Positions 13,918 through 42,059 of a stretch of DNA of 64,000 nt are shown here, piece by piece. Source of the stretch: Deltaproteobacteria bacterium ADurb.Bin151. GTDB taxonomy: Bacteria > Desulfobacterota > Syntrophia > Syntrophales > Smithellaceae. The notes beneath the pieces were generated by a model. It was not told the DNA's origin and made no database searches. It saw only the letters and a program-made list of their open reading frames with translations. Made by a program: the position numbers and the translations under genes. Numbering within the stretch: the stretch's first letter is position 1; each line of letters begins with the position of its first letter. The stretch spans positions 7,062-71,061 of the forward strand of contig MWDG01000002.1 in NCBI GenBank assembly GCA_002070455.1, written 5' to 3'.

Positions 13918-13992
13918 GGTCGGTTCCTCCCTGCTGGGCAGGTCCATCCTTCTCCCGGGTTGACCGGGCGATCCCTAAGTTGAAGATTACAG

Positions 13993-14004
13993 GATTATCG
14001 ATAG
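13993..14004. repeat. 12-nt exact repeat GATTATCGATAG, copy 1
   Basis: Identical 12-mer at 13993-14004 and 14098-14109. It contains the palindrome TATCGATA. Both copies lie upstream of the REC-PAS-HD-GYP gene. Confidence 0.6.
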
Positions 14005-14097
14005 CTTCCATCTGACACGCTGCACATGATCTGCATGCCAACAAGCAAGTTTATGATTTATTTGAATATTAACTTATACAAGCAGGGAACGCAAGCA

Positions 14098-14109
14098 GAT
14101 TATCGATAG
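14098..14109. repeat. 12-nt exact repeat GATTATCGATAG, copy 2
   Basis: See copy 1. This copy lies 4 nt downstream of the phosphoglucomutase stop codon (14113-14115). Confidence 0.6.
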
Positions 14110-14112
14110 TCT

Positions 14113-15813
14113 TTATATCATTTTCTCAAATCCTGCCGCGACGTTTTTCAGCCGATTTTCCGACTCCTCCCGAGTGGTTCCACGGACCGCATAGTATATC
14201 TTGATCTTCGGTTCCGTTCCTGAAGGACGAATGCAGATCCACGCCGAATTCTCCAGAATAAGCTTGATCGCGTCGGATGTGGGGAACTCCATATCTGTCA
14301 CCGTCCCGTCAGGCGCCGTTCTCTTGCCGGAAAGATAATCCTCCGTATAGCGCACTTTCAGATCACCCACCCTGGCAACCGGTTTTACGCGCAGCCCCGC
14401 CATGATTGACTTCATTTTCTCCATGCCGTCCAGTCCCTTGAAAGCAATATTCTTCACCCCGTCAAGATAGTAACCGTAAGTCTGGTAAAGCGTTTCCAGG
14501 ACATCAAGCAGGCTTTGGTTTCGCCCCCGGTAATACTGTGCCGCCTTGCATAAAAGCAGTGCTGCAAGTACCCCGTCTTTATCACGGGCAAACGTACCGG
14601 CCAGGAAGCCATAGCTTTCCTCAAACCCGAAGACGAACCCGTCATTGGTCTGTTCATTTTTCTTAATGAGTTCGGCAATAAAACGAAAACCCGTCATCAC
14701 CGTGTAAGACACAACACCGTAATGCTGCGCGATGACGTCAGCCATGTCGGTGGAGACAAAAGATTTGACAATATAATCCGACGACTGGAGCAGCCCCGAG
14801 GATTGCCGCTTTTCAAGCAGGTAATTTGTAAGCAGGCAGCCGATCTGATTGCCCGTCAGCATGATGTAGTTGCCGTCCTTACGGCGAACGGCAGCTCCCA
14901 TGCGGTCCGCGTCCGGGTCCGTGCCAATCGCCAGATCCGCTTTCAGGCGTGCCGCCAGGGCAAGGGCCATCTTCATCGCATCCGGGTCCTCCGGATTGGG
15001 GGAATTCACTGTCGGGAAAAGGCCATCCGGCATTCTCTGCTCCTCGACAATGAACAGGTTCCTGATTCCGGCGGCGGGGAAAACATTCTCAACCGTCCGC
15101 AATCCTGACCCGTGCAGCGGCGTATAGACAACCTGGAGACTCTCGTCCGGCTCATCACCACAGAGGGCAACCATGCTCTTATAATAAATCCGGTCAATCT
15201 CTTCGCCGATTTCACGGATCATGCCTGTCTTAACCCCCTCCTGATAACTGATCCTTTTGACATCCGTGAAAGGATCCCGCCTCTGTATGTTTTTCATGAC
15301 TTCCAGGCTTTCTTCGGGACCAAGCTGTCCCCCGTATGGGGAATACACTTTATATCCGTTGTATTCCCGGGGATTGTGACTGGCTGTGATAACGACGCCG
15401 CCGTCCGCTTTCAGATGCCGTACTGCGAAAGATAATTCGGGCACACTTGTCAACTGCTTGAAGATGCAGGCCTGAATGCCGTTGCCCGCGAACACACATG
15501 CGGTTTCCCTGGCGAATTCCGCTGAGAACTGCCTTGAGTCATAGGCGATGACCATGCACCGGCCTGATTTGCCGCCGGTTAAAAGATAATCGGCCAGGCC
15601 CTGTGTCGCCCGGCCAATCACATAACGGTTCATGCGCATGGTCCCGGCGCCGAGAACCCCCCGCAGCCCCGCTGTGCCAAAAGGCAGATCGCTGATAAAA
15701 CGTTCCCTGATCTGTGTGTCATCCCCCTGGATCGAATTGAGTTCCTTTAACAGGTAATCTTCATTAACCGAGTTTTTCCAACGTATATAAGTATTCTGGT
15801 AGCTCATCATCAT
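14113..15813 (-). CDS. pgm: Phosphoglucomutase/phosphomannomutase family protein
   Basis: 566 aa. Active-site loop TASHNPREYNGYKVY, metal loop GTDPDADR, sugar-binding loop GFEESYG. Confidence 0.9.
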   Translation of the reverse strand: MMMSYQNTYIRWKNSVNEDYLLKELNSIQGDDTQIRERFISDLPFGTAGLRGVLGAGTMRMNRYVIGRATQGLADYLLTGGKSGRCMVIAYDSRQFSAEFARETACVFAGNGIQACIFKQLTSVPELSFAVRHLKADGGVVITASHNPREYNGYKVYSPYGGQLGPEESLEVMKNIQRRDPFTDVKRISYQEGVKTGMIREIGEEIDRIYYKSMVALCGDEPDESLQVVYTPLHGSGLRTVENVFPAAGIRNLFIVEEQRMPDGLFPTVNSPNPEDPDAMKMALALAARLKADLAIGTDPDADRMGAAVRRKDGNYIMLTGNQIGCLLTNYLLEKRQSSGLLQSSDYIVKSFVSTDMADVIAQHYGVVSYTVMTGFRFIAELIKKNEQTNDGFVFGFEESYGFLAGTFARDKDGVLAALLLCKAAQYYRGRNQSLLDVLETLYQTYGYYLDGVKNIAFKGLDGMEKMKSIMAGLRVKPVARVGDLKVRYTEDYLSGKRTAPDGTVTDMEFPTSDAIKLILENSAWICIRPSGTEPKIKIYYAVRGTTREESENRLKNVAAGFEKMI

Positions 15814-29429: not shown

Positions 29430-31373
29430 TCACTCACCCGTCAACCGTCGAAACTCTTGTGTATGCCGGATATTATCAAAATCAATCTCGGTCCTTGCAT
29501 CCTTTTTATAGGAAGATTTCAGCTGAATGGCTGTCGCCAGGTCCCGCAAGGCGCCTTTCACATTCCGCATCATGGAATAAAGGCGGGCCCGGCGGTAATA
29601 GGGGCTCGCGTATTGCGGTTCCAATTTAATCGCCCTGGTCAGATCAACAATAGCCTGCTGATATTTACCCAGAGCGTAATAAGAAGCACCGCGGTTGTTG
29701 TATGCAGAACGGATATTCGGATCCAGTTCGGTCGCACGATTATAATCCGATATGGCTTCCTTATATTTTCCTAAATAATAATAGGCATTGCCCCGGTTGT
29801 GATACGCAATCGCATCCCCCGGGGCAAGTTCAATGGCCTTATTATAATCTGCCACCGCTTCGTTATATTTGCGAAGATCATCATATGCGCTTCCGCGGTT
29901 ATGATAGGCAATGGCATACTGTGGATTGAGGTTAATCGCCACATTGTAATCCGCAATAGCCTCCTGATGTATGCCCATTCTGGAATAGGTATTGCCCCGG
30001 TTATGATAAGCAACCGCGTTTCCCGGATTGAGTTCGATCGCCTTGTTGTAGTCCGCCAAGGCATCATGATAGTTCCCCAGGTCAACATAAGCGCCCCCGC
30101 GGTTGTTATAGGCAATGATATATTTTGGATTGATTTCAATCGCTTTATTGTATTGAGCGACGGCTTCATGGTGTCTGCCGAGCAGGGAATAAACATTGCC
30201 GGAGTTGTTGTACGCCACGGCATCCTTCGGATCGAGTTCAATCACTTTATTGTAATCGGCCATGGCTTCATGATATTTGCCCAGGGCCACATACGCGCTG
30301 CCGCGGTTGTTATAAGCCATTGCGTAATCTGAATAAAGTTGAATCGCCTTACTGTAGTCGGCTACAGCTTCCGGATGGATTCCGAGCCTGGAATAGACAT
30401 TACCGCGGTTATAGTAGGCGGTTGCAGAATGTGTGTCCTGTTCAATCGCTCTGGTACACTGATCCAGGGTCTGCTCCCGTTTACCGGGGATGGAATAGAC
30501 ATTACCGCTGGTGTCATAGGACACCGCATGACCCCGATCAAGCTTGACCGCTTTATTCAGTTCTGCAATGTCTTCATGGAAGATCGGGTCAACGATTCGA
30601 TAAATTTCCCCTGATTGATGGTTGAATATCACTACTTTTTTTAAATCCACTTTAAGAATATTTGAATAGCGGGACACCGGTCCGTCGATTATCGCTTTAC
30701 GGACAGGATGGTCCGTGAGATTGCATATCAAAAGTACCCTCATGTTGTCGCTTGCCCGTTTTGCCTCCGCTGGCTTCATATCGACCGCGACCCGCATCAC
30801 TGCCTGCCGGTCTTTGTCTGCAATCACAACCCTGTAAAGAACGTCAATCTTTTCTCCGGAAATCATTGAATCTTTTCTATACTTACCCTGCTTGCTTTTC
30901 ACACTCTGTATGGCTTTCTCTCCCGGATATTCGAGCTCATGGCTATCAACCACCCGGATTTTTTTGACAAGGATGCCGTCAGATTTTATGTGTTTTATTT
31001 CAAAAATAAATTTTGAATTTCCTGAATCATATTTTTTTTCGGGCTGCTGCAGGACAAAGGCAAACCGGTCCCGAACGGTCATGTTCCCGACGACATTTTT
31101 ATTCTGATCATGACCGGTTTTCTGTTCGGTCCGGCCATTTGCCGCAGATTCCTCTTTTTTGACCGGGTATCCTACCAAGAGACTTCTGTATACAGCCGCA
31201 ATATCGTGGCCGTTGTATTTTGAGGGAAGCGACTTCCATTGATCCTGAAAAGGCTCTGTGGAATAAGGATCTGAGGATTGTATTGATTTCTTTGCCGCGA
31301 AAGGGGCTCCCGGCAGAAGAAGAAAAAAGAAGATCATGGAATAAATAAGGATGAAAAAAATGCTTTTTTTCAT
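29430..31373 (-). CDS. Exported TPR-repeat protein
   Basis: 647 aa. Signal peptide, a non-repetitive domain of about 290 aa, then about 10 tandem 34-aa TPR units (AYNNRGNxYxxLGxYxEAxADYNKAIELxP). Confidence 0.85.
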   Translation of the reverse strand: MKKSIFFILIYSMIFFFLLLPGAPFAAKKSIQSSDPYSTEPFQDQWKSLPSKYNGHDIAAVYRSLLVGYPVKKEESAANGRTEQKTGHDQNKNVVGNMTVRDRFAFVLQQPEKKYDSGNSKFIFEIKHIKSDGILVKKIRVVDSHELEYPGEKAIQSVKSKQGKYRKDSMISGEKIDVLYRVVIADKDRQAVMRVAVDMKPAEAKRASDNMRVLLICNLTDHPVRKAIIDGPVSRYSNILKVDLKKVVIFNHQSGEIYRIVDPIFHEDIAELNKAVKLDRGHAVSYDTSGNVYSIPGKREQTLDQCTRAIEQDTHSATAYYNRGNVYSRLGIHPEAVADYSKAIQLYSDYAMAYNNRGSAYVALGKYHEAMADYNKVIELDPKDAVAYNNSGNVYSLLGRHHEAVAQYNKAIEINPKYIIAYNNRGGAYVDLGNYHDALADYNKAIELNPGNAVAYHNRGNTYSRMGIHQEAIADYNVAINLNPQYAIAYHNRGSAYDDLRKYNEAVADYNKAIELAPGDAIAYHNRGNAYYYLGKYKEAISDYNRATELDPNIRSAYNNRGASYYALGKYQQAIVDLTRAIKLEPQYASPYYRRARLYSMMRNVKGALRDLATAIQLKSSYKKDARTEIDFDNIRHTQEFRRLTGE

Positions 31374-31480: not shown

Positions 31481-31780
31481 CTAAAAAGAATGACATGCCG
31501 CGCATTTCAGCTTATTCTTACCATTCTTGTGGATTTTATGGATTTCCACTGAAAAATTTGTCGGTTCATGATCGGCCGGATCCGGTGTGTGACAGGACAA
31601 ACAGGCTTTTATATCACCGACCTCAGGATGTTTTTTGGGCATGATCTTACTGTAGTCCTTGTGACAGGCAGCACACGCATCTTCCTTTAAAGGTGGTTCA
31701 GCGGCTAAAACGATTGTTCCTGTCAAGAAGCATATCAATATTACCACACATGCATAAATGAAGTATTTCCCCACATGCAT
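31481..31780 (-). CDS. Small trihaem c-type cytochrome
   Basis: 99 aa. N-terminal signal/anchor and three CxxCH motifs (CAACH, CLSCH, CAACH). Confidence 0.8.
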   Translation of the reverse strand: MHVGKYFIYACVVILICFLTGTIVLAAEPPLKEDACAACHKDYSKIMPKKHPEVGDIKACLSCHTPDPADHEPTNFSVEIHKIHKNGKNKLKCAACHSF

Positions 31781-31812: not shown

Positions 31813-32853
31813 TTACAGGCCCTGAAACTTAAAGGGATTTGCGTTTCTGAATGAATCCAGGGCATCGCCTGCATAAATTTCATTTTTTTCCAGCGAAAGT
31901 TTTTTAACCGGCGCATTTTCACTGAAATCGATTTTCTTGAGATTCACCCAGAAGACATTCGGCGTCAAGACATTTTCGAAATAGTAAACAAGATTTTTCT
32001 GATCAGAGACAGCTCTCCAGCGTGTCGAAGAAATATTGGGCTGATCTTTCGTGGATATTCCGTAGGGCACTGAACAATTCCTGATCACGCTGAAAACACC
32101 GGCAACGGCAATCCTGGGATCGCTTGTCTGGCGTATGGTCCTGATATAATAGGACGCCCTGACAAAACGGTCTGCGGCGCGATTGGTCCCCGGGAGCATG
32201 ACGGTGCCCGGTATCCCGCTCCAATAATCGTTCAGGGCCAGCTGCTTTGAAAAGACCGGGGAGTTCGTCATGACATTGTATGTCCGATCATGATGGATCA
32301 CCAGTTTTCGCCCTATGTATTCAAAAATCGCATTATCGCCCGTCGCATCTGAAATCGACAGATGCAGCGTTGACAGCATGTCCGTTCCGGGAATCACATC
32401 CGAGAATACCATAAACTTTTCTTTTTTCAGTTCACGAACAGCCTCTTTGACGGTCGCAAAATTATCCAGCACATACTGCGCCCACGCGGCAATGGTCACC
32501 CCTTTCTGCTTGAGATCATACGGAGGATATTCGGACTCCGCCAGCCACAGGAGATTCGCCGCCAGTCCCTTTTCGTTCATGCCGTCGACGGTGGAATTTT
32601 CAAATGAGCTGATCACGAGACTGCCGTACCGTGATTTCCATTTGATGGAATTCGGGCCCGCTTCGCCGTTTCGCTGCATTCCGCGGGGAAATATCCACAT
32701 ACCGGCCGGTATTTCATCCTTCCAATCCATGGACCTTGCGGTGATGATGGTACTTTCAGGCCCCTGGTAGACCACGCGTGTACAGGCCATTGCCTCCGTG
32801 TTCAAAACAATGTTCATGAGCATACAGACCAGAAATACAAACAGTTTTTTCAT
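31813..32853 (-). CDS. Choloylglycine hydrolase / penicillin V acylase family Ntn hydrolase (exported)
   Basis: 346 aa. Signal peptide ending ...TEAMA followed by CTRVVY...ARSMDW. The nucleophile Cys sits at the predicted mature N-terminus, the family hallmark. Confidence 0.85.
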   Translation of the reverse strand: MKKLFVFLVCMLMNIVLNTEAMACTRVVYQGPESTIITARSMDWKDEIPAGMWIFPRGMQRNGEAGPNSIKWKSRYGSLVISSFENSTVDGMNEKGLAANLLWLAESEYPPYDLKQKGVTIAAWAQYVLDNFATVKEAVRELKKEKFMVFSDVIPGTDMLSTLHLSISDATGDNAIFEYIGRKLVIHHDRTYNVMTNSPVFSKQLALNDYWSGIPGTVMLPGTNRAADRFVRASYYIRTIRQTSDPRIAVAGVFSVIRNCSVPYGISTKDQPNISSTRWRAVSDQKNLVYYFENVLTPNVFWVNLKKIDFSENAPVKKLSLEKNEIYAGDALDSFRNANPFKFQGL

Positions 32854-33034: not shown

Positions 33035-33064
33035 TTGACTTCACTGATCATTTTTTTCTATAAT
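33035..33064 (+). promoter_or_regulatory. Candidate sigma-70 promoter of the AmmeMemoRadiSam operon
   Basis: TTGACT (33035-33040), 18 nt spacer, TATAAT (33059-33064). Confidence 0.45.
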
Positions 33065-33109
33065 TAAAAATATTCAATGCTGATTCACGGTAAGAAATCT
33101 CCTGAGGAT

Positions 33110-34309
33110 ATGATGATGATTTCAAGACGTGATTTATTGTTAACATGCCTAAAAATGCTGGCGGCGTCCGGCTGCGGCATCATCCTGTCCGATCCGTTCT
33201 GGCAGAGGATTTTGTCAGGCGACGATTCGGGGCTGGCCTTCGGAGCCTCTTATCTTGATGAGATCGTGCGTCTGGCCCCCGTGGCCCGTTACTGGAAACC
33301 GCTCGCCGGTCAAGGCGAAGGAGCCTCCCGTGAAAAGACGATTGTCAAATGTCTTCTTTGCCCCAACGGATGCGCCATCGCCAATGGTAAACGCGGGACG
33401 TGCCGGACACGCATGAATGTCAACGGAGAACTGCGCAGCCTTGTCTATGGCCGCCCCGTGTCCATCCATATCGATCCCATCGAGAAGAAACCCCTGTACC
33501 ATTATCTTCCTTCCTCCTCCGCATTTTCGCTTGCGACCGCCGGCTGTCCACTCAGCTGCAAATTCTGCCAGAACTGGGAGATATCGCAGGCATCCCCCGA
33601 AGACCATCAGGGGCCATTCGCACATCCTTCCAGGATTGCTGATGCCGCAAAAAACAGCAAATCGCCGGTTATCGCCTTTACATACAATGAACCGACTGTT
33701 TTCTCCGAATATATGGTTGATATCGCCGGAGAGGCCAGAAGAAAGAATATCCGATCCGTGATGATCAGCTGTGGATTCATCAACGAAGATCCTCTCGCGG
33801 AACTGTGCGGGGTTCTTGACGCAATCAAGATCGACCTGAAGGGATACAGCGAGAATTTTTACCGTACCGTTTGCGGGGCCTCGCTGCGTCCCGTTCTCAA
33901 AAGCATCAAACAGATCGCGAAAAGCCGCGCTCATCTTGAAATTGTGAACCTGGTTGTCCCGACATTAAATGATTCGGACAAGATGCTGCAGGATTTGATC
34001 AACTGGATTTTGGGAGAAGTGGGCGCGGACATTCCGGTTCACTTTACGCGCTTTCATCCGGATTACCAGCTGAGGAATCTTTCGCCCACACCGGTTGCCA
34101 CTCTGGAACGGGCCCGGGATCTGGCCCTGGCAAAGGGAATGCATTATCCCTATGTGGGAAACGTACCCGGCCATCCGGGGAATCATACCTACTGCCCGGG
34201 CTGCGGAAAGGTCGTGATCGAGCGACAGAGTTTTTTCGTGACAGCAATGAACATCAATAACGGGCAATGCAAATTCTGCGGACAAAAAATTGCCGGTGTA
34301 TGGGCATAG
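33110..34309 (+). CDS. amrS: AmmeMemoRadiSam-system radical SAM enzyme with twin-arginine signal-like N-terminus
   Basis: CPLSCKFCQNWEISQ (CxxxCxxC). Upstream CLLCPNGC...GKRGTCRTR and IDPIEKKPLYHYLP are typical of this rSAM family. The N-terminus MMMISRRDLLLTCLKMLAASGCG matches the Tat motif S-R-R-x-L-L. The start lies somewhere within 33077-33116. Confidence 0.88.
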   Translation: MMMISRRDLLLTCLKMLAASGCGIILSDPFWQRILSGDDSGLAFGASYLDEIVRLAPVARYWKPLAGQGEGASREKTIVKCLLCPNGCAIANGKRGTCRTRMNVNGELRSLVYGRPVSIHIDPIEKKPLYHYLPSSSAFSLATAGCPLSCKFCQNWEISQASPEDHQGPFAHPSRIADAAKNSKSPVIAFTYNEPTVFSEYMVDIAGEARRKNIRSVMISCGFINEDPLAELCGVLDAIKIDLKGYSENFYRTVCGASLRPVLKSIKQIAKSRAHLEIVNLVVPTLNDSDKMLQDLINWILGEVGADIPVHFTRFHPDYQLRNLSPTPVATLERARDLALAKGMHYPYVGNVPGHPGNHTYCPGCGKVVIERQSFFVTAMNINNGQCKFCGQKIAGVWA

Positions 34310-34326
34310 AAAGCGATGAATGAAAA

Positions 34327-35868
34327 ATGAAGATTTTGCGGTTGTGTGTTATATTGTTGATCAGCAGTCTATTTTGTTCCACATCATGTGAGGCAAATAA
34401 AATGTCAAATGCAGATATTCGTGAACCCGCTGTTGCAGGAAGATTTTATCCGGATTCCCCGGTCAAGCTCAAAAGCGCCATTCTACAATTTTTACAGGAT
34501 GCTCTTCCGGCAAAGTTGAAAAAGCCGGTCGCCATCGTCGTTCCCCACGCGGGTTACATCTTCTCCGGTCAAATCTGCGCCGACGGATTCAAACAGGTCA
34601 GCCATGAAAAGTATGATGTGGTCGTCATTCTGGGGACCAATCATACCAACTCAGGTTTTCAGAAAATTTCTCTTTATCCCGGCAGCGGTTTTCGCACTCC
34701 CCTAGGAACGGCGCACATTGACCGGAGCATCGTTTCCGCTCTTGTCAAAGAAGCTCCGGCGGACTGCACGCTCGATACCTCGCTTCATGAATCCGAGCAT
34801 TCCGTTGAAGTCATGGTGCCCTTTATTCAGGTGATCTTTCCGAAGGCAAAAATTGTCCCTGCCGTTGTCGGTTCACCGGACACACAGATGTGCGCCCGCT
34901 TCGGCCGTGCCCTGGCAAAGGTATTGAAAAACAGACGGGCGTTGATTGTCGCGAGTTCCGATCTTTCTCACTATCCTTCGGCGGAAAATGCGGATTTCGT
35001 GGACAGGGAAACCCTCGCGGCCGTTGCAAAACTTGATCCCGGCATTTTTCAGGCAACTGTAAAGTCTCAGGCAAAAAGAAACATCCCCAACCTTCATACC
35101 AGTATCTGCGGTGAAGCACCGGTCCTGGCAACGATGGCGGCAGCCGAGGCCCTTGGGGCCGTCCGCGGTGTGGTGGTCAGCTACGCCAATTCAGGAGATA
35201 TGTCGGTGGGGGATCGTTCGCGGGTTGTCGGGTACGGCGCTGTTGTTTTTACGGCAGAAGCCCAATACGAGGGAATACCAGCCGCCAAATCCTCTCAGAA
35301 GGCGACCTCTGCCTCCAGCGAGCTCACGCCGGCAGATAAAAAAGCGCTGCTTGCATTTGCCAGAAAAACTCTATCCGGGATCTTTGCGACAACGACCGTC
35401 CCCCTGGCAAGAGGTTTTGACGCTAGGCTCCAACAGCCACGTGGCGTTTTTATCACCCTCAGGAAAAAGGGTGATCTCCGCGGCTGCATCGGCCGAATGG
35501 TTGCTGATGAACCGCTTGTTAAACTGGTCGGCATCATGTCCCTGCAGGCAGCCTTTAACGACCGGCGTTTCCCCCAGTTGACAGCGGATGAACTGAAGGA
35601 CATCGAAATCGAGATATCCGTATTGACCCCGATGAAACAGGTGGCCGGCGCTGACAAAATTGTCGTTGGAAGGGATGGTGTTTTACTGACCAAAGACGAT
35701 CATTCCGCTGTTTTCCTTCCTCAGGTGGCAACGGAACAGGGATGGAACCGGGAACAAATGCTCGACCATCTCTGCCTGAAAGCGGGATTGACGACCGGCA
35801 GCTGGAAAAAGGGAGCAAAATTCTCAACCTTCCAGGCAATCGTTTTCAGCGAATCGCAATTCAAATAA
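34327..35868 (+). CDS. Fused Memo-like (AmmeMemoRadiSam protein B) and AMMECR1 (protein A) protein with signal peptide
   Basis: 513 aa. N-terminal hydrophobic signal MKILRLCVILLISSLFCSTSC. Memo motifs PAVAGRFYP, VPHAGYIFSG. AMMECR1 motifs RGVFITLRKKGDLRGCIG, AVFLPQV. Confidence 0.88.
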   Translation: MKILRLCVILLISSLFCSTSCEANKMSNADIREPAVAGRFYPDSPVKLKSAILQFLQDALPAKLKKPVAIVVPHAGYIFSGQICADGFKQVSHEKYDVVVILGTNHTNSGFQKISLYPGSGFRTPLGTAHIDRSIVSALVKEAPADCTLDTSLHESEHSVEVMVPFIQVIFPKAKIVPAVVGSPDTQMCARFGRALAKVLKNRRALIVASSDLSHYPSAENADFVDRETLAAVAKLDPGIFQATVKSQAKRNIPNLHTSICGEAPVLATMAAAEALGAVRGVVVSYANSGDMSVGDRSRVVGYGAVVFTAEAQYEGIPAAKSSQKATSASSELTPADKKALLAFARKTLSGIFATTTVPLARGFDARLQQPRGVFITLRKKGDLRGCIGRMVADEPLVKLVGIMSLQAAFNDRRFPQLTADELKDIEIEISVLTPMKQVAGADKIVVGRDGVLLTKDDHSAVFLPQVATEQGWNREQMLDHLCLKAGLTTGSWKKGAKFSTFQAIVFSESQFK

Positions 35869-35872
35869 ATCC

Positions 35873-38035
35873 ATGGTCATTTCACTGATTGCCATCGGCC
35901 TGATTTCGATCCTGGGTCAGGTTGTCCTGATCCGGGAATTGAATGTTGCCTTCTATGGCGTCGAACTGATTTATCTCCTTGCTCTGGGAATATGGTTGTT
36001 ATGGACTGCGGCAGGCGCTGTCATCGGGCGGCGGAATCACTTCCCATCACCGGGCCAAGTCGCAGTGCTTTTCATCCTTTTCGGAATCTCCCTCCCGGTG
36101 GATGTAATGTTCATTCGATCCAGTCGTCTCATCTTTGGCGGAGTGCCCGGTGCCTACCTTCCCATCATTTTGCAATTCACCATCGTGGTCGTTTCCCTGC
36201 TTCCGGCGGGATTGCTGTCCGGTCTGCTGTTTCAGTGGGCGGCAAAGACTTACATGAAGGACGGCAGAACCCTTGCTCTTGCCTACGCAATAGAAAGTGC
36301 GGGCGGATTCATCGGCGGATTCGTGTCCACCCTGCTGATCCTGTGGGGGATTCGTAATTTCTCGGCGGTGCTTGTTTGCTCACTCGTATCCGTTATAACG
36401 CCTCTCTTCCTTCTCAAAGGGGTCAGGGGAGTTCTCGTCCGTTCGTCGGTTATCCTTCTTAGCTGTGTCATTCTGCTGCTCCTGTGGAACACTTCCTTGC
36501 TGGACCGCCGGATGACCATGCTGAATCACCCGAACCTGGTGGAAAGCAGCGATTCTCCTTACGGCAGAATCAGTGTTACGCGGCTACACAACCAGATTCC
36601 CGTTTTTGAAAATGACGCCCTGGCGTTTGAAACGGAAGGAACGGAATCCGAATACTTCTGCCATTTAACGGCGCTTCAGCACCCGAATCCGAAGGATGTG
36701 CTGATCCTCGGCGGCGGAATCGAAGGTCTCGTTCGGGAAATGCTGAAATATACTCCCCGGCGGATTGATTATATTGAACTCAACCCCGTCCTGTTCCAGC
36801 TCACCATCCAACATCTCCCTGATGACATCCGCAATTCTCTCGGCAACCCGAAAGTACGGATTGTCTTCGCCGATCCCCGCCGGTATCTGAAAGAAAGCGG
36901 CTCATACGATCTCATTCTGGTCGGAATGCCCCAACCATCCTCGGGCCAGACCAACCGTTTTTACACGCGGGAATTTTTCGAACAATGCCGTGTAAAACTC
37001 AAACCCGGAGGAATTCTGGGCTTGAGGCTCCACACGGCTGAAAACCTGTGGACCGTTCCGCTTGCACGCCGCAACACAAGCATCTACCGGGCCCTGCAGT
37101 CGGTTTTCCCCGCAACACTGTTTCTGCCGGGAAGCACAAACGTTGTCACCGCCTCCGATGTGCCCCTCCCGGAATCTCCGGAAATCATGTTTCGCCGCCT
37201 TCAAAACAGGCAGCCTTCAACAAGATTGATTTCAAAAAGTTACATCGAATACCTTTTCACCAACGACAGATATTACAAAATCAGGGACTTGCTCCATCAT
37301 GAACATGCACCTGCAAACACCGACATCAGACCCGTCTGTTATCCGTATGCCATCATTATCTGGCTTTCACAGTTTTATCCGCGCATCGCCCTGCTTGATC
37401 CCTTTTTCGTGATCGACCGGGGATTTCTAAAATCTTCATGGGTCTGGTTGTCCGGCATTGGGTTCATCATCTTTTTGCTTGTCATTCGCGTTCAGCCCGC
37501 GCTGAAACGAATCATCCTCGTTGCCGCAGCCGGATTTACAGGCATGGTGCTGGAAACCATCCTACTACTGTATTATCAGGTTACGCACGGGGTGCTTTAT
37601 CAGGATATCGGAATTCTGATGATGAGTTTCATGGCAGGTCTTGCTGCAGGCGCAATGGCAATTCACAAAAAGATGTCGGATAGCATGGAGCACAGGCCAT
37701 TCAAGCGTTTGTATGGTGCGTTCTTGCTTATTGGATTCTGTTTTTTATGCGCTTATACAGGAATCACTTTAACCATGGGCAACTCACTTGGCCTGGCCCC
37801 GATTTCATTTCTTCTGGGAGCATCGGGCTTTGCAGTGGGAGGCATTTTTGCCTATGCTAGTATCCATAAAGTAGAAGACCGGATAAAAGTAATTTCCCCG
37901 CTGTATGCCGCCGACCTGATCGGCGGATGTGTCGGCTGCCTGCTTGGCAGCCTCATTTTCATTCCGCTTGCAGGCATGGATGTAACCGCATGGGGACTGT
38001 TTCTCGTTGCGGCGCTTTTGCTCATTCTGGTTTAG
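35873..38035 (+). CDS. Polytopic membrane protein with central spermidine-synthase-like domain (fused MFS/spermidine synthase type)
   Basis: 720 aa. About 7 TM helices, then a class I methyltransferase/aminopropyltransferase-like core (VLILGGGIEGLVREML...IDYIELNP...DLILVGMP), then about 6 more TM helices. It starts 4 nt after the upstream stop. Confidence 0.75.
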   Translation: MVISLIAIGLISILGQVVLIRELNVAFYGVELIYLLALGIWLLWTAAGAVIGRRNHFPSPGQVAVLFILFGISLPVDVMFIRSSRLIFGGVPGAYLPIILQFTIVVVSLLPAGLLSGLLFQWAAKTYMKDGRTLALAYAIESAGGFIGGFVSTLLILWGIRNFSAVLVCSLVSVITPLFLLKGVRGVLVRSSVILLSCVILLLLWNTSLLDRRMTMLNHPNLVESSDSPYGRISVTRLHNQIPVFENDALAFETEGTESEYFCHLTALQHPNPKDVLILGGGIEGLVREMLKYTPRRIDYIELNPVLFQLTIQHLPDDIRNSLGNPKVRIVFADPRRYLKESGSYDLILVGMPQPSSGQTNRFYTREFFEQCRVKLKPGGILGLRLHTAENLWTVPLARRNTSIYRALQSVFPATLFLPGSTNVVTASDVPLPESPEIMFRRLQNRQPSTRLISKSYIEYLFTNDRYYKIRDLLHHEHAPANTDIRPVCYPYAIIIWLSQFYPRIALLDPFFVIDRGFLKSSWVWLSGIGFIIFLLVIRVQPALKRIILVAAAGFTGMVLETILLLYYQVTHGVLYQDIGILMMSFMAGLAAGAMAIHKKMSDSMEHRPFKRLYGAFLLIGFCFLCAYTGITLTMGNSLGLAPISFLLGASGFAVGGIFAYASIHKVEDRIKVISPLYAADLIGGCVGCLLGSLIFIPLAGMDVTAWGLFLVAALLLILV

Positions 38036-38136: not shown

Positions 38137-38556
38137 TCAAATCAGGTCATCGCCCTTCGTCGCCATCATAAATCCGGCATGCTTCACGCTCTTAATGGAT
38201 TTCAATTTCCGATAGAGTTCTTCAATTTGCTTTGGTTTACCCCTTGTCACAATAATCTCAAAACAATTGTGATGATCCAGATGAATATGCTGACTGGACA
38301 GAATGCAGGTATGATAATCATGCTGGACATCCAGCACTTTTGTGACCAGGGCCTTTGCATGATGATCATAAACCAGGGTAATGGCGCCGGTCACCTCCCT
38401 GTTATCCGTCCATTCCTTCTTGATAAGCTCTTCCCGGATCATGTCGCGTATCGCTTCGGATCGGTTCGTATACTTTCTTTGCCTGATCAGACGGTCGAAA
38501 CGCGTCAGCAATTCTTCTTCCAGAGAAACACCGAATCGTACCAGTTTGGAGTTCAT
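38137..38556 (-). CDS. nikR: Nickel-responsive transcriptional regulator NikR
   Basis: 139 aa. N-terminal RHH (RFGVSLEEELLTRFD...YTNRSEAIRDMIR) and a C-terminal metal-site His/Cys cluster (HDYH...HIHLDHHNC). Confidence 0.9.
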   Translation of the reverse strand: MNSKLVRFGVSLEEELLTRFDRLIRQRKYTNRSEAIRDMIREELIKKEWTDNREVTGAITLVYDHHAKALVTKVLDVQHDYHTCILSSQHIHLDHHNCFEIIVTRGKPKQIEELYRKLKSIKSVKHAGFMMATKGDDLI

Positions 38557-38581
38557 CGTTCCTATCCCGAGGTAATATATT

Positions 38582-38635
38582 TTGTTGATATATATAAAAA
38601 AATGAATGAATGGGTCAAGGGATATATTTCAACAA
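38582..38635. promoter_or_regulatory. Large imperfect inverted repeat upstream of nikR
   Basis: TTGTTGATATATAT (38582-38595) pairs with GATATATTTCAACAA (38621-38635). The outer arms TTGTTGA and TCAACAA are perfect. It lies 26-79 nt upstream of the nikR ATG. Confidence 0.3.
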
Positions 38636-38707
38636 ATCTTTTTGGTCATTCAGCAACATTATTGATTGACAACCGCGATATTCTATGTCACGAAAAACTA
38701 ATTCGTA

Positions 38708-38744
38708 GCACGATGACCGCCCGTGCATTTCGCAGTGATCGTGC
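38708..38744. promoter_or_regulatory. Candidate NikR-type operator (10-bp inverted repeat with 17-nt spacer) upstream of the TonB receptor gene
   Basis: GCACGATGAC (38708-38717), 17-nt spacer, GTGATCGTGC (38735-38744). 9 of 10 positions are complementary. It ends 38 nt before ATG 38783. The geometry resembles the E. coli NikR site (6-bp half-sites, N16). Confidence 0.35.
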
Positions 38745-38782
38745 CTCATGAGAATAATTCATTTTTCCTGCAAAGGGTCATT

Positions 38783-40738
38783 ATGATGAAGTGTCGGTTC
38801 TGGGGTCCGCTGTGCCTGTTTGCTTTGCTCTTTTTTCAATATCCGGCGTTTACCGCGGATCAAAAGTCTGAAGATCCTGTCCGGATGGAAGAAGTAGTGG
38901 TGGTGGCATCACCGATTATCGAAGGAAACCGGGTGACCCATTCGGGAAATCAGGTCACCATCGTCAGTAAAAAACAAATCGACGATTTAAATGCTCAGGA
39001 TCTGCCTTCGGCGCTCAGGCGCACGCCCGGCATAAACATTTCGCGCCACAATTTCGTAGGAAGCTTCGGCGGCGGCGATGGCGGCGCGATATACATTCGA
39101 GGCATGGGAAGTTCCCGTCCCGGCGCGGAAATCCAAATGCTGGTGGACGGGGTTCCGAAATTTGCCGGCATCTGGACTCACCCCCTGATGGATATCATGA
39201 GCGTGGATATCGCCGATCGAATCGATATAACAAAAGGTGCCCAGCCGGTCCTGTTTGGCAACATGACAGCCGGAGCAGTCAATATCATCACCAAAACGCA
39301 AAAAGAAGACGGCTTCTCAACCAGCATTCGCGGTGCGGCAGGTTCTTACCATACATGGATTGAAAGTATTGAGCATGGCGGAAAAATCAGGAATACGGAC
39401 TATTATCTTCTCCAAAGCTTCAAACAGTCCAGAGGCCACAGGGAAAATGCGGGAGGAGAGCTTCAGAATTACTTTGGACACATCGGCCATCAACTTTCCG
39501 ACAAGTGGAAGATTTCAGTTACAGCCAATGCAACCCATAACTCCGCTGACGATCCGGGGCCGGAGAACCGCCCGCAGGAGAGGCAGGGAACTTTTAAAAC
39601 GGAAGACTATCTGGGCATTGCCACCCTTTCGCATGCCTATGGCATTGTTCAGGGTGACTGGAAGGTATACTGGAATAACGGCATAGCCAGATGGACGGAT
39701 CAGTATGACCTTGCCGATCATTTTTATTACGATACAATTACCAAATTTGACAATTACGGGATTCGGGCGCGTGAAGCCATCCAGCCCTGGACAGGCGGAA
39801 CTTTCACGGTCGGGGCCGACTGGGACTGCACATCCGGAACGGTGACCATCAACAGGGGACTGCTCCGACAGGACAGCTACTTCTCACGTGATACATTCCG
39901 CATTCTGTCTCCCTTTTTTTTACTGGGACACGAATTCAATCTCATCAAGGAATGGAAATTGATTCCCTCGGCGGGCGTTCGTTACTACAACCACAGCGAC
40001 TTCGACGCCCGCTGGGCGCCTCAGGCAGGAATTGTTCTGAAAGATTCTCTTACAGACCTTCATCTGTTTTACGGCCGGGGAGTCAATTATCCTGGGCTTT
40101 ACGTCGTCGCCCAATCCAATATGCTCTGGAGGGGCAATACACGCTGGAAAGACCTAGACCCGGAAACCGTTGATCACCTGGAAGCGGGGATCGGCCGCTT
40201 TTTGGGCCCTAAAACCCGGATCGATCTGACCTGGTTCTACGATAAAGGCAGCAATCGCCTGATTATTATTACCAGCCCGGCTCCGCCTCATTATGAAAAT
40301 ATCGCGAACTTTGAAACGCAGGGACTGGAGGCAACCCTCTCCGTCGAACCGATTCAAAACCTGTCCCTGTTTACTGGAGGCACCTGGCTTTATAAACGCT
40401 CTCCGGACAATCTGCCTTATGCGCCTGAGTGGACTGCTTCAGCCGGCGGCAACCTGCGGCTTTTCCGATATCTGAAAATCAGTCTGGATACCACCTACCA
40501 GAATTCCCAATACGTCGCCAATAACCGTAACCTGAATTATGGAACCAGCATCTCAAAGATTGACGGATTCTGGATTTTAAACGGGAAAATCAGCTGGGAG
40601 TTCAACCTGCCGAAGCCTGCACTGACGGGAGAAGTTTATCTGGCAGGAGAAAATCTGACCAATGTCCATTATGCATACAAGAAAGATTATCCCATGCCCG
40701 GCATTAACTGCCTCCTGGGCGTGAATATCAGGTTTTAA
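38783..40738 (+). CDS. TonB-dependent outer-membrane receptor
   Basis: Signal peptide, TonB-box-like EEVVVVAS, plug-domain motifs (GINISRHNF...IRGMG), and a barrel ending ...GVNIRF. Start taken at ATG 38783 (MMKCRF). Confidence 0.9.
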   Translation: MMKCRFWGPLCLFALLFFQYPAFTADQKSEDPVRMEEVVVVASPIIEGNRVTHSGNQVTIVSKKQIDDLNAQDLPSALRRTPGINISRHNFVGSFGGGDGGAIYIRGMGSSRPGAEIQMLVDGVPKFAGIWTHPLMDIMSVDIADRIDITKGAQPVLFGNMTAGAVNIITKTQKEDGFSTSIRGAAGSYHTWIESIEHGGKIRNTDYYLLQSFKQSRGHRENAGGELQNYFGHIGHQLSDKWKISVTANATHNSADDPGPENRPQERQGTFKTEDYLGIATLSHAYGIVQGDWKVYWNNGIARWTDQYDLADHFYYDTITKFDNYGIRAREAIQPWTGGTFTVGADWDCTSGTVTINRGLLRQDSYFSRDTFRILSPFFLLGHEFNLIKEWKLIPSAGVRYYNHSDFDARWAPQAGIVLKDSLTDLHLFYGRGVNYPGLYVVAQSNMLWRGNTRWKDLDPETVDHLEAGIGRFLGPKTRIDLTWFYDKGSNRLIIITSPAPPHYENIANFETQGLEATLSVEPIQNLSLFTGGTWLYKRSPDNLPYAPEWTASAGGNLRLFRYLKISLDTTYQNSQYVANNRNLNYGTSISKIDGFWILNGKISWEFNLPKPALTGEVYLAGENLTNVHYAYKKDYPMPGINCLLGVNIRF

Positions 40739-40752
40739 ACTATGGAAACGGA

Positions 40753-41379
40753 ATGCCTATGCAGGAAGTGATCTTCGACTCAGCCAGGGAAAAATTCTTC
40801 GATGAATTTTCCAACAGATGGGACCAAAGCGGACCGTCACCCGCAACCGATGTGGTGCTGACCTTTCTGCGGAAACTGCACATTGATTCGGCCAAAACCG
40901 TGCTGGATGTAGGAACAGGGACCGGTTTGCTGATTCCGCACATTTTTTCCTTTCATCCGGCCAGGGTCATCGCCCTGGATTTGTCGGCAGGCATGCTGGA
41001 AAAACTGCGGGAAAAGCATTCCACCCGGTTCGGCGCCGGACTGGTGATTCTGCAGGGTGATGTCCATTTGCTGAATCTGCCCGATACCACCGTGGACGTT
41101 GCCGTTTGCAACGGCGTTTATCCGCATTTCCGCGATAAATCTCTGGCGTTGTCCCAACTGCACCGCGTGCTGAAAAAGCGGGGCGTTCTGGCCGTCAACC
41201 ATTTTGCCGGAAGGGAATTCATCAACAGCATTCACGGATCCTCCTCTCACGATCTGATCCGTCAGGACCTGCTGGATCCCGCAGCGACCTTGTCTGAAAC
41301 CATTGCCGGTTACGGATTCCATGTCAAAGAGCTGCGCGACGACACAAACGAATTTTATGTGATCGCGGAGAAAATATGA
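40753..41379 (+). CDS. Class I SAM-dependent methyltransferase
   Basis: 208 aa. Motif I VLDVGTGTGLL and motif post-I ALDLSAGML, of the Methyltransf_11 type. Overlaps the next gene by 4 nt. Confidence 0.8.
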   Translation: MPMQEVIFDSAREKFFDEFSNRWDQSGPSPATDVVLTFLRKLHIDSAKTVLDVGTGTGLLIPHIFSFHPARVIALDLSAGMLEKLREKHSTRFGAGLVILQGDVHLLNLPDTTVDVAVCNGVYPHFRDKSLALSQLHRVLKKRGVLAVNHFAGREFINSIHGSSSHDLIRQDLLDPAATLSETIAGYGFHVKELRDDTNEFYVIAEKI

Positions 41380-42059
41380 CGCGGGAGGCAGTCGTCGAAA
41401 TTCATGGACTCATTGCCGGTTACGGCCGTCATCAGGTATTAAACAAACTGGATTTAACGGTTCGGCAAGGCGAAGCCCTGGGCATTGCGGGAGATAACGG
41501 AACAGGCAAAACAACCCTGTTCAAGGTCATTCTGGGTTTGATTGCGCCCATGGAGGGTAATGTGCGTTTGCAGGGACAGGAACTGGACACTCCCCGTTTG
41601 CGCAGGCTAATGAGATGCCGGATCGGATATGTGCCACAGTTGTATACACCGGGGAAAATGCCTGTCTCCGTACATGATGCCGTTCTCATGGGAAGATGGA
41701 GCATGGGGTTCGGTTTTTTCAAGAGCCCGACGGTGCAGGACCGTCAGAAAGTAAGCGAGATTCTCCAGGAAGTAGGAATGTCTCACAAGGAATGGCAACC
41801 GGTGCATCTTCTCTCCGGCGGAGAGCAGCAGAAGGTATCTATTGGACGCGCGCTGGTTCGTGAAGCGCCGATCCTGCTTATGGATGAACCCAGCACCTAT
41901 CTGGATCACGCATCACAGGCGGAAATCATCGAACTGATCCGAACCATTCAATTGAAACATCACCTGACACTGATCATGATCAGTCACGATCCGGAGCACC
42001 TGGAGGCAATGAGTGACCGCATTCTTTTATTGAAAAACGGCCGATTGGAAGAACGATAA
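41376..42059 (+). CDS. Metal ABC transporter ATP-binding protein (ZnuC/TroB-like)
   Basis: Walker A GDNGTGKTT, signature LSGGEQQKV, Walker B ILLMDEP. Confidence 0.9.
   Translation: MTREAVVEIHGLIAGYGRHQVLNKLDLTVRQGEALGIAGDNGTGKTTLFKVILGLIAPMEGNVRLQGQELDTPRLRRLMRCRIGYVPQLYTPGKMPVSVHDAVLMGRWSMGFGFFKSPTVQDRQKVSEILQEVGMSHKEWQPVHLLSGGEQQKVSIGRALVREAPILLMDEPSTYLDHASQAEIIELIRTIQLKHHLTLIMISHDPEHLEAMSDRILLLKNGRLEER

Follow-up and report, generated by a model that had tools for sequence, protein, structure and literature searches.

A three-gene operon within a 64,000-nucleotide window of Deltaproteobacteria bacterium ADurb.Bin151 (contig MWDG01000002.1) codes for a radical S-adenosylmethionine (SAM) enzyme (rSAM), a Memo-AMMECR1 fusion protein, and a polytopic membrane protein with a spermidine-synthase-like domain, here called SpeL. 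We propose that this operon encodes a variant AmmeMemoRadiSam system located outside the cytoplasm, a reading to which we assign a probability of about 0.6, and it is fairly probable that the soluble parts of all three products face the periplasm. This placement follows from the hydropathy contrast between twin-arginine translocation (Tat)-type and Sec-type signals on the rSAM proteins, the signals carried by every fusion N terminus, the joining of FMN_bind domains and Sec signals to rSAM chains in relatives, and the positive-inside rule as applied to SpeL. Export-type N termini and linkage to SpeL were the two unusual features singled out in the original prediction for this DNA, and both are conserved rather than accidental.

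Organization of the operon and start of the rSAM gene

The three open reading frames (ORFs) are all on the forward strand and as tightly packed as had been described, with the fusion gene beginning 17 nucleotides (nt) downstream of the rSAM gene and a gap of only 4 nt before SpeL (Table 1). Because the neighboring genes upstream (31813 to 32853) and downstream (38137 to 38556) are both on the minus strand, the trio is a self-contained unit, and its layout is that of a single predicted transcription unit. The promoter proposed for it is indeed a good one, with 11 of 12 consensus matches; sites with at least 11 matches number three in the 64 kb, both strands included, where first-order Markov simulations give an expectation of 0.68.

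The mechanically assigned rSAM ORF begins at ATG 33077, just 12 nt past the -10 box and with no ribosome-binding site, and is 410 aa long. Of three ATGs, the last, at 33116, is most likely the true start, given the spacing of the GAGGA sequence and homologues that begin MISRRD, and the twin-arginine (RR) motif therefore lies within the protein. These observations bear on whether the pattern is an annotation artifact, in which translation really begins 3' of the RR motif and the genes are linked by chance in a single lineage. The match to the TIGR04337 profile does not start until residue 86 of the 410-aa ORF, as such an artifact would allow, but MISRRD and the next 60 residues are conserved in 17/17 aligned homologues and the ribosome-binding site suits 33116, so a start codon downstream of the RR motif is rejected. 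With the motif recurring in many phyla and the linkage holding in both seeding directions (see below), we regard the artifact as refuted and highly improbable.

Predicted export signals of the rSAM enzyme and the fusion protein

The rSAM protein is of the AmmeMemoRadiSam type, as predicted, scoring 373.1 bits against TIGR04337 (cutoff, 220), and is conserved over its full length across the 17 homologues; the closest proteins to the operon products are from Smithella/Syntrophales metagenome-assembled genomes (MAGs). In addition to the cluster motif (Table 1), cysteines C79, C82, and C96 near the N terminus and C360, C363, and C385 near the C terminus are conserved, and C388 nearly so. The nearest solved structure is that of the pyruvate formate-lyase (PFL)-activating enzyme (E = 4.7e-5), and no solved structure was found for any TIGR04337 member.

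The N terminus reads MISRRDLLL and continues into a moderately hydrophobic h-region, in keeping with the Tat pattern S/T-R-R-x-F/L-L. M-I-S-R-R is nearly invariant among the 17 homologues (identity down to 66%), and the entire 70-residue extension aligns. The original prediction of a good twin-arginine start thus stands with its coordinate corrected to 33116, and orthologues lacking the RR motif, which it had named as evidence against itself, are not what we see, as the orthologues retain it. Four of them score above the cutoff of 16.7 for the Tat hidden Markov model (HMM) TIGR01409 (25.5, 22.3, 20.1, and 17.0 bits), five fall just under it (16.2 to 13.7), and the rest score 10.5, 9.1, or nothing.

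Relatives were sought among 1.84 billion cluster representatives, of which 1387 matched below 1e-30, and N termini were classed for the best 150. Among these best 150 of 1387, 23 combine a strict RR motif with an h-region, 4 begin with a Sec-like signal or transmembrane (TM) segment, 9 have large membrane-anchored N-terminal extensions, and 90 are extension free, a class that accounts for only 4 of the 30 closest representatives. A second set, seeded with the rSAM protein, comprises 80 species-representative genomes together with loci L001 to L003 (83 loci with 84 rSAM genes); of the 84 genes, 50 carry a strict RR motif and 3 others a KR variant, and 23 are Sec-like or TM type. A third set, seeded with SpeL, comprises 80 metagenome loci with SpeL identities of 69 to 29%, and the strict RR motif is present on 42 of the 46 complete rSAM genes beside SpeL homologues. 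The mean hydropathy of the h-region is 1.54 in RR-bearing proteins (n = 97) versus 2.43 in those without RR (n = 27), the classical contrast between Tat and Sec signals. Three rSAM genes from unrelated MAGs apparently lack an N-terminal extension (L038:5190-5460, L067:1786-2056, and L048:2198-2468); in each, an upstream ORF in another frame codes for a TM helix and the motif '..AGLxPxEA[KR]Y[YW]R', ending just before the first Cys motif, and these are split genes or frameshifts at the same position.

The second gene codes for Memo and AMMECR1 in one polypeptide, as had been proposed, and both halves are well above the cutoffs of their models (TIGR04336, 255.5 bits against 26 for residues 32 to 308; TIGR04335, 168.5 bits against 99 for residues 340 to 507). 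Its PHAGY, GTNH, SSDLSH, and ICGE motifs, which we take to be metal ligands, align with conserved motifs of human MEMO1, and the LRGCIG motif of AMMECR1 is present in the translation. The Sec-type start also bears scrutiny, with a strongly hydrophobic N-terminal segment on all 87 distinct fusion N termini in the rSAM- and SpeL-seeded sets. A strict lipobox is present in 29 of these 87, and 56 have a Cys close to where the signal ends. The window protein, with ..LFCSTSC, departs from the PROSITE-like lipobox pattern ([LVI][ASTVI][GAS]C) at position -4, where it has Cys, and the lipoprotein reading is set aside for it; we therefore refer to the fusion signal as Sec type, and as that of a lipoprotein in some lineages. 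The fusion accompanies the rSAM gene in 42 of the 83 rSAM-seeded loci.

Conservation of the three-gene linkage

The trio is present in the same order, with unrelated flanking genes, in L001 to L003. SpeL is encoded on either strand in 50 of the 83 rSAM-seeded loci, and in 18 of the 27 Tat-type loci that have at least 4 kb on both sides. The reverse seeding is in agreement: a Memo/AMMECR1 or rSAM gene is present in the available flank of 67 of the 80 SpeL-seeded loci, and among the 24 loci flanked by 3.5 kb or more on each side, 20 have both the rSAM and fusion genes. The loci come from groups that include Thermodesulfobacteriota, Acidobacteriota, Latescibacterota, Ignavibacteria, Aminicenantes, Omnitrophota, Zixibacteria, Planctomycetota, Lentisphaerae, Kiritimatiellae, and Elusimicrobia, and the trio is conserved across at least seven phyla. 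The neighborhood survey that the original prediction called for, of Tat signals and adjacent SpeL genes, thus returns RR on 50/84 rSAM genes and SpeL in 50/83 loci. The linkage to a membrane spermidine-synthase-like protein, whose lack of conservation was to count against the proposal, is kept with different flanks, across phyla, and in both seeding directions.

Domain fusions and additional partners in relatives

Several relatives carry other domains on the rSAM chain. Two close cluster representatives (P0246 and P0255) have an N-terminal TM segment followed by FMN_bind and rSAM domains with no TM segment in between, and two others (P0254 and P0258) have an additional NapH/NosR-type Fer4_5 membrane module. 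The FMN_bind domains of RnfG, NqrC, and NosR are extracytoplasmic and are flavinylated outside the cell. P0276 has a Sec signal, Memo, AMMECR1, and rSAM on one chain, and P0248 and P0251 combine rSAM with CBM_11 or beta-propeller domains. Together these fusions hint at an extracytoplasmic supply of electrons.

Three further representatives (P0242, P0253, and P0262) have DsbD_2 fused to rSAM, and an approximately 215-aa DsbD_2 (CcdA-like, PF13386) membrane protein, with GPCxxxCGP in TM1 and APCAP in TM4, adjoins the rSAM gene in 17 loci (L021 [e.g., L021:4177-4815], L026, L027, L033, L037, L040, L042 to L044, L066, L068 to L071, L074, L078, and L080). By rSAM gene, DsbD_2 is associated with 18 of 23 Sec/TM-type proteins versus none of 50 Tat-type proteins. 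The association is partly phylogenetic, as it occurs mostly in Omnitrophota and the PVC group; Tat-type Omnitrophota (L034, L055, and L075) are without DsbD_2. This restriction fits the idea that Tat-exported rSAM proteins would leave the cytoplasm with their clusters in place, and that Sec-exported ones would need help outside.

A Tat-signal DUF362 (PF04015) protein is a recurrent neighbor of Tat-type rSAM genes. It is directly adjacent in L020 (5287-6273), L072 (6899-7879), and L133 to L161 (e.g., L143:6893-7909 and 13149-14162), and in a peat and bog group the gene order is DUF362, SpeL, fusion, rSAM, DUF362, such that the module is flanked on both sides. Neither DsbD_2 nor DUF362 was found in the 64-kb window.

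Predicted topology of SpeL and its spermidine-synthase-fold domain

SpeL had been described as a 720-aa protein with about 13 TM helices and a central aminopropyltransferase-like domain; the fold of the domain stands, the helix count does not, and the domain lacks the catalytic Asp. Seven helices precede the soluble domain and six or seven follow it according to hydropathy and an AlphaFold2 (AF2) model (predicted local distance difference test [pLDDT], 67.7), and we model SpeL with 14 TM helices (7+7). Residues 4 to 179 are homologous to residues 549 to 719 (hhalign, 97.4%; E = 1.5e-11), and SpeL therefore appears to be built from two parallel 6-TM bundles with TM7, the soluble domain, and TM8 inserted between them. 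Parallel bundles joined by two extra helices would place the inserted domain outside, and only with the soluble domain outside do the two extra helices seem to make sense.

The distribution of Lys and Arg residues in 32 SpeL homologues, drawn from many phyla, points to the same topology. In all 32, loops 2-3, 4-5, 6-7, 8-9, 10-11, and 12-13 have K+R totals of 9 to 18, and the alternate loops have totals of 2 to 6. In the N-terminal half, K/R residues are more numerous in loops 2-3, 4-5, and 6-7 than in loops 1-2, 3-4, and 5-6, and in the C-terminal half loops 8-9, 10-11, and 12-13 have means of 2.1, 4.0, and 1.8 versus 1.0, 0.1, and 0.0 for loops 9-10, 11-12, and 13-14. By the positive-inside rule, the SpeL N terminus is thus predicted to be cytoplasmic and the soluble domain periplasmic, and the two halves support this placement independently, the C-terminal half more clearly. 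No Pfam family matched the N-terminal TM half, and the hits of the SpeL model in Foldseek were all soluble SpeE structures, with none for the TM domain.

The soluble domain is recognized by Pfam Spermine_synth (PF01564; residues 258 to 382, 71.4 bits against a cutoff of 22.9), and its best match in the Protein Data Bank (PDB) is Thermus SpeE (1uir; E = 4.8e-18), the same family as is given by Foldseek. Conserved across the 32 SpeL sequences are the GGG motif, E302 (ribose), D334 (adenine), and D346, with R362 invariant and N361 nearly so, and the domain probably binds an adenosyl ligand. However, SpeL does not look like an ordinary spermidine synthase. The Asp/Glu following GGG that selects decarboxylated SAM (dcSAM) is replaced by a hydrophobic residue in SpeL homologues (GGGIEG in the window in place of GGGDG), and the catalytic Asp position is E or D in 21 of 32 homologues and Q in the window protein (VGMPQP for VDSxDP). 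All of the SpeE equivalog models score below cutoff (TIGR00417, 75/249.6; PRK00811, 89/260; PRK03612, 101.8/472), and the fused major facilitator superfamily (MFS)/spermidine synthase model NF037959 (MFS_SpdSyn) does not reach its cutoff of 40 (30.4 bits).

Rather than handle an adenosyl cofactor, as in the model below, SpeL could be extracytoplasmic and do something else: it might be the target of the PflA-like rSAM enzyme, a holder of the substrate (which would be a membrane lipid or the periplasmic domain of SpeL itself), or a true alkyl-transferase (aminopropyl, aminocarboxypropyl, or methyl) acting on the same envelope molecule. Glycyl-radical activating enzymes, to which the rSAM enzyme bears a resemblance, have proteins as substrates, many homologues may be catalytic given the acidic residue at the catalytic position in 21 of the 32, and the large TM domain could bind lipid. 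The reported connection of Memo contexts with isoprenoid modification (see below) would also suit such roles. However, no glycyl-radical-like motif was identified, the window protein has Gln at the catalytic position, the TM domain resembles a duplicated transporter core, and a SAM source outside the cell for two SAM-fold proteins would be left unexplained. We consider these roles unlikely.

Which side of the membrane

Several observations weigh against an extracytoplasmic placement. The case as a whole is in silico and built on sequence inference. The rSAM N terminus in the window has no match to TIGR01409, and its signal has a Lys within the h-region and lacks a clear AxA cleavage site; the AF2 model is too poor over the first 170 rSAM residues to place the post-signal linker on the core. 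The TM count of SpeL comes from hydropathy and a moderate AF2 model in which residues 435 to 520 have pLDDT values below 50, and a hidden crossing at approximately 488 to 505 would therefore flip the side of the domain; the C-terminal half matches Pfam MFS_1 only below the cutoff (17.1 bits against 33.4; E = 0.0027). About one-third of the well-flanked Tat-type loci have no SpeL within 8 kb, and SpeL is therefore not obligatory. Separate, signal-free AMMECR1 proteins are encoded beside Tat-type rSAM genes in L045, L056, and L065 and are exceptions to the export of all parts. No reductant gene is encoded in the three-gene operon, and we know of no mechanism by which SAM reaches the periplasm.

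Some of these points are equally what would be expected of a module that is membrane located but faces the cytoplasm, with the RR N terminus a vestigial or nonexporting Tat-like sequence or a tether (NarG, with its remnant Tat-like motif, is a comparison), the SpeL domain cytoplasmic, and SAM and reductant drawn from the usual pools. No place other than the cytoplasm, or a compartment equivalent to it, is known to have SAM, low-potential reductants, and Fe-S assembly, and the TIGR01409 failure, the lack of a clear signal-peptidase site, the poorly modeled SpeL segment, with a TM count that could be wrong, and the signal-free AMMECR1 partners can all be read in its favor. However, a positive N terminus with a single hydrophobic segment puts the next domain outside, Sec-type signals are found on every one of the fusion partners, and in relatives the rSAM chain bears a Sec signal that looks cleavable, a lipobox, or FMN_bind, CBM, or propeller domains. 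Moreover, DsbD_2 co-occurs only with the non-Tat type, and the positive-inside rule agrees independently for each half of SpeL. A cytoplasm-facing module is thus quite unlikely, and we favor the extracytoplasmic placement.

A model for the proposed extracytoplasmic system

For an extracytoplasmic operon, we envisage that the rSAM enzyme would fold and gain its Fe-S clusters in the cytoplasm and then cross the inner membrane by Tat, possibly remaining tethered through an uncleaved signal, and that the Memo-AMMECR1 fusion would be exported via Sec, as a lipoprotein in some lineages. SpeL would have an MFS-like 6+6 TM arrangement, in which two extra helices in the central loop push the adenosyl-binding domain to the periplasmic face. 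It may export SAM through the transporter-like core and present it on the outward Rossmann domain; alternatively, it could capture and re-import the by-products 5'-deoxyadenosine or methylthioadenosine (MTA). The rSAM enzyme and the metal-binding Memo-AMMECR1 protein would then modify an envelope substrate. That SpeL supplies or handles an adenosyl cofactor at the outer face is a tentative suggestion. Also tentative is the general scheme, in which periplasmic radical-SAM chemistry would operate in many anaerobes, with SAM exported and presented by SpeL, the rSAM enzyme leaving via Tat or via Sec with help from the CcdA-like DsbD_2, and electrons in some lineages coming from extracytoplasmic FMN_bind/NapH-like modules.

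The clade of exported-looking rSAM proteins is large and phylogenetically wide, accounting for about one-quarter of the best 150 (of 1387) 50%-identity representatives and for most of the 30 closest. If the proposal is correct, then SAM is available outside the cell, unless exported rSAM enzymes carry it along, and the function of AmmeMemoRadiSam includes a reaction on an envelope substrate. Memo and AMMECR1 are conserved up to humans and are linked to disease, and the SpeL partner would offer a handle both on their role and on the purpose of "membrane spermidine synthase-like" proteins. The alternation of Tat with Sec plus DsbD_2, together with the FMN_bind fusions, suggests a solution for cluster integrity and electron supply outside the cell, and makes the idea of an extracytoplasmic module directly testable.

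Other features of the window

Table 1. Coordinates of the operon features within the 64-kb window
Feature	Coordinates	Strand	Basis or remarks
Sigma-70-like promoter, TTGACT (33035-33040)-N18-TATAAT (33059-33064)	33035..33064	+	11/12 matches; in 220-bp divergent intergenic region
GAGGA ribosome-binding site	33104..33108	+	7 nt upstream of ATG 33116; read from sequence
AmmeMemoRadiSam-type rSAM enzyme, 397 aa from MISRRD	33116..34309	+	TIGR04337, Pfam Radical_SAM
Twin-arginine-type N-terminal signal, MISRRDLLLTCLKMLAASGCGIILS	33116..33190	+	RR codons 33125-33130; M-I-S-R-R nearly invariant
CX3CX2C radical-SAM cluster motif, CPLSCKFC	33545..33568	+	C144/C148/C151 invariant in 22 aligned sequences
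Memo-AMMECR1 fusion, 513 aa	34327..35868	+	TIGR04336 and TIGR04335; Pfam Memo and AMMECR1
N-terminal Sec-type signal of the fusion, MKILRLCVILLISSLFCSTSC	34327..34389	+	Hydrophobic segment, residues 1-22
SpeL, 720-aa polytopic membrane protein	35873..38035	+	6 TM + TM7 + spermidine-synthase-fold domain + TM8 + 6 TM
SpeL TM helices 1-7, residues 2-210	35876..36502	+	Hydropathy, AF2 helices
SpeL soluble domain, spermidine-synthase (class I Rossmann) fold, predicted periplasmic	36509..37417	+	1uir match, Foldseek
SpeL TM helices 8-14, residues 522-720	37436..38032	+	Hydropathy, AF2, K/R loop counts

The product of the divergently transcribed upstream neighbor (31813 to 32853, minus strand) belongs to the choloylglycine-hydrolase family (CBAH) and has both a signal peptide and an N-terminal Cys; the next gene encodes a 99-aa multiheme c-type cytochrome with three CxxCH motifs (31481 to 31780, minus strand). 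Both proteins are likely periplasmic, and their linkage to the operon is not conserved in L001 to L003. Beyond them, a 647-aa secreted-looking protein has at least about eight tandem tetratricopeptide (TPR) repeats (29430 to 31373, minus strand). Downstream of the operon, in the interval from 38137 to 42059, a NikR gene on the minus strand faces genes for a TonB-dependent receptor, a class I methyltransferase, and an ABC ATPase, in what looks like a nickel-regulated uptake locus; its ABC ATPase gene is syntenic in L004.

Comparison with known systems

In the literature searched, which left out Burroughs et al. 2019, no radical SAM enzyme is described as Tat bearing, periplasmic, exported, or secreted, AMMECR1 and spermidine synthase were not found in a relevant combination, and "AmmeMemoRadiSam" is mentioned only incidentally, in six papers. 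Burroughs et al. 2019 reportedly extended the known Memo-AMMECR1-rSAM gene contexts, and the abstract is said to link Memo contexts to the modification of nucleotide bases and aliphatic isoprenoids. To our knowledge, all characterized radical SAM enzymes are active in the cytoplasm or in a compartment equivalent to it.

The closest known system is classical AmmeMemoRadiSam (TIGR04335/TIGR04336/TIGR04337), which combines AMMECR1, Memo, and a PflA-like rSAM enzyme in archaea and bacteria. The window proteins pass all three models with their motifs intact, and by this measure the genes are true members of the family. The classical form, however, has an rSAM enzyme of approximately 335 aa with no N-terminal extension and separate, signal-free Memo and AMMECR1 proteins (e.g., L081), whereas the window has a Tat-type signal on the rSAM enzyme, Memo and AMMECR1 fused behind a Sec-type signal, and SpeL as an added fourth domain family. 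The predicted exported, fused, and SpeL-linked form is thus distinct from the classical cytoplasmic system. Among characterized rSAM proteins, the closest relatives are the PFL-activating enzyme and other glycyl-radical activases, although the similarity is weak (E of about 1e-5 to PDB entries, and all below family cutoffs), and the window enzyme differs from them in its extra N- and C-terminal Cys clusters and in having no glycyl-radical enzyme partner.

Tat-exported Fe-S proteins, such as hydrogenase small subunits, DmsB/NrfC-type ferredoxins, and Rieske proteins with an uncleaved Tat anchor, fold before export and share with the window rSAM enzyme the S-R-R-x-F-L motif and a weakly hydrophobic h-region; we know of none that is a radical SAM enzyme, nor of any that needs a diffusible cytoplasmic cofactor like SAM. 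Known membrane spermidine-synthase-like proteins (PRK03612/NF002956 and NF037959) resemble SpeL in having an N-terminal multi-TM region and a spermidine-synthase fold, and PRK03612 aligns with SpeL residues 6 to 382. SpeL differs from them in its scores (101.8/472 and 30.4/40), in a second homologous TM bundle after the domain, in the absence of the catalytic and dcSAM-selecting Asp residues, and in the predicted periplasmic location of the domain. Finally, SpeE proteins (Thermus thermophilus 1uir and 3anx; Thermotoga maritima 1inl) have the same fold and nucleotide-binding motifs as the SpeL domain, but with GGGDG/GGGEG changed to GGGIEG, VDxxDP changed to VGMPQP, and the domain inserted into a predicted 14-TM protein, spermidine synthesis is not expected of SpeL.

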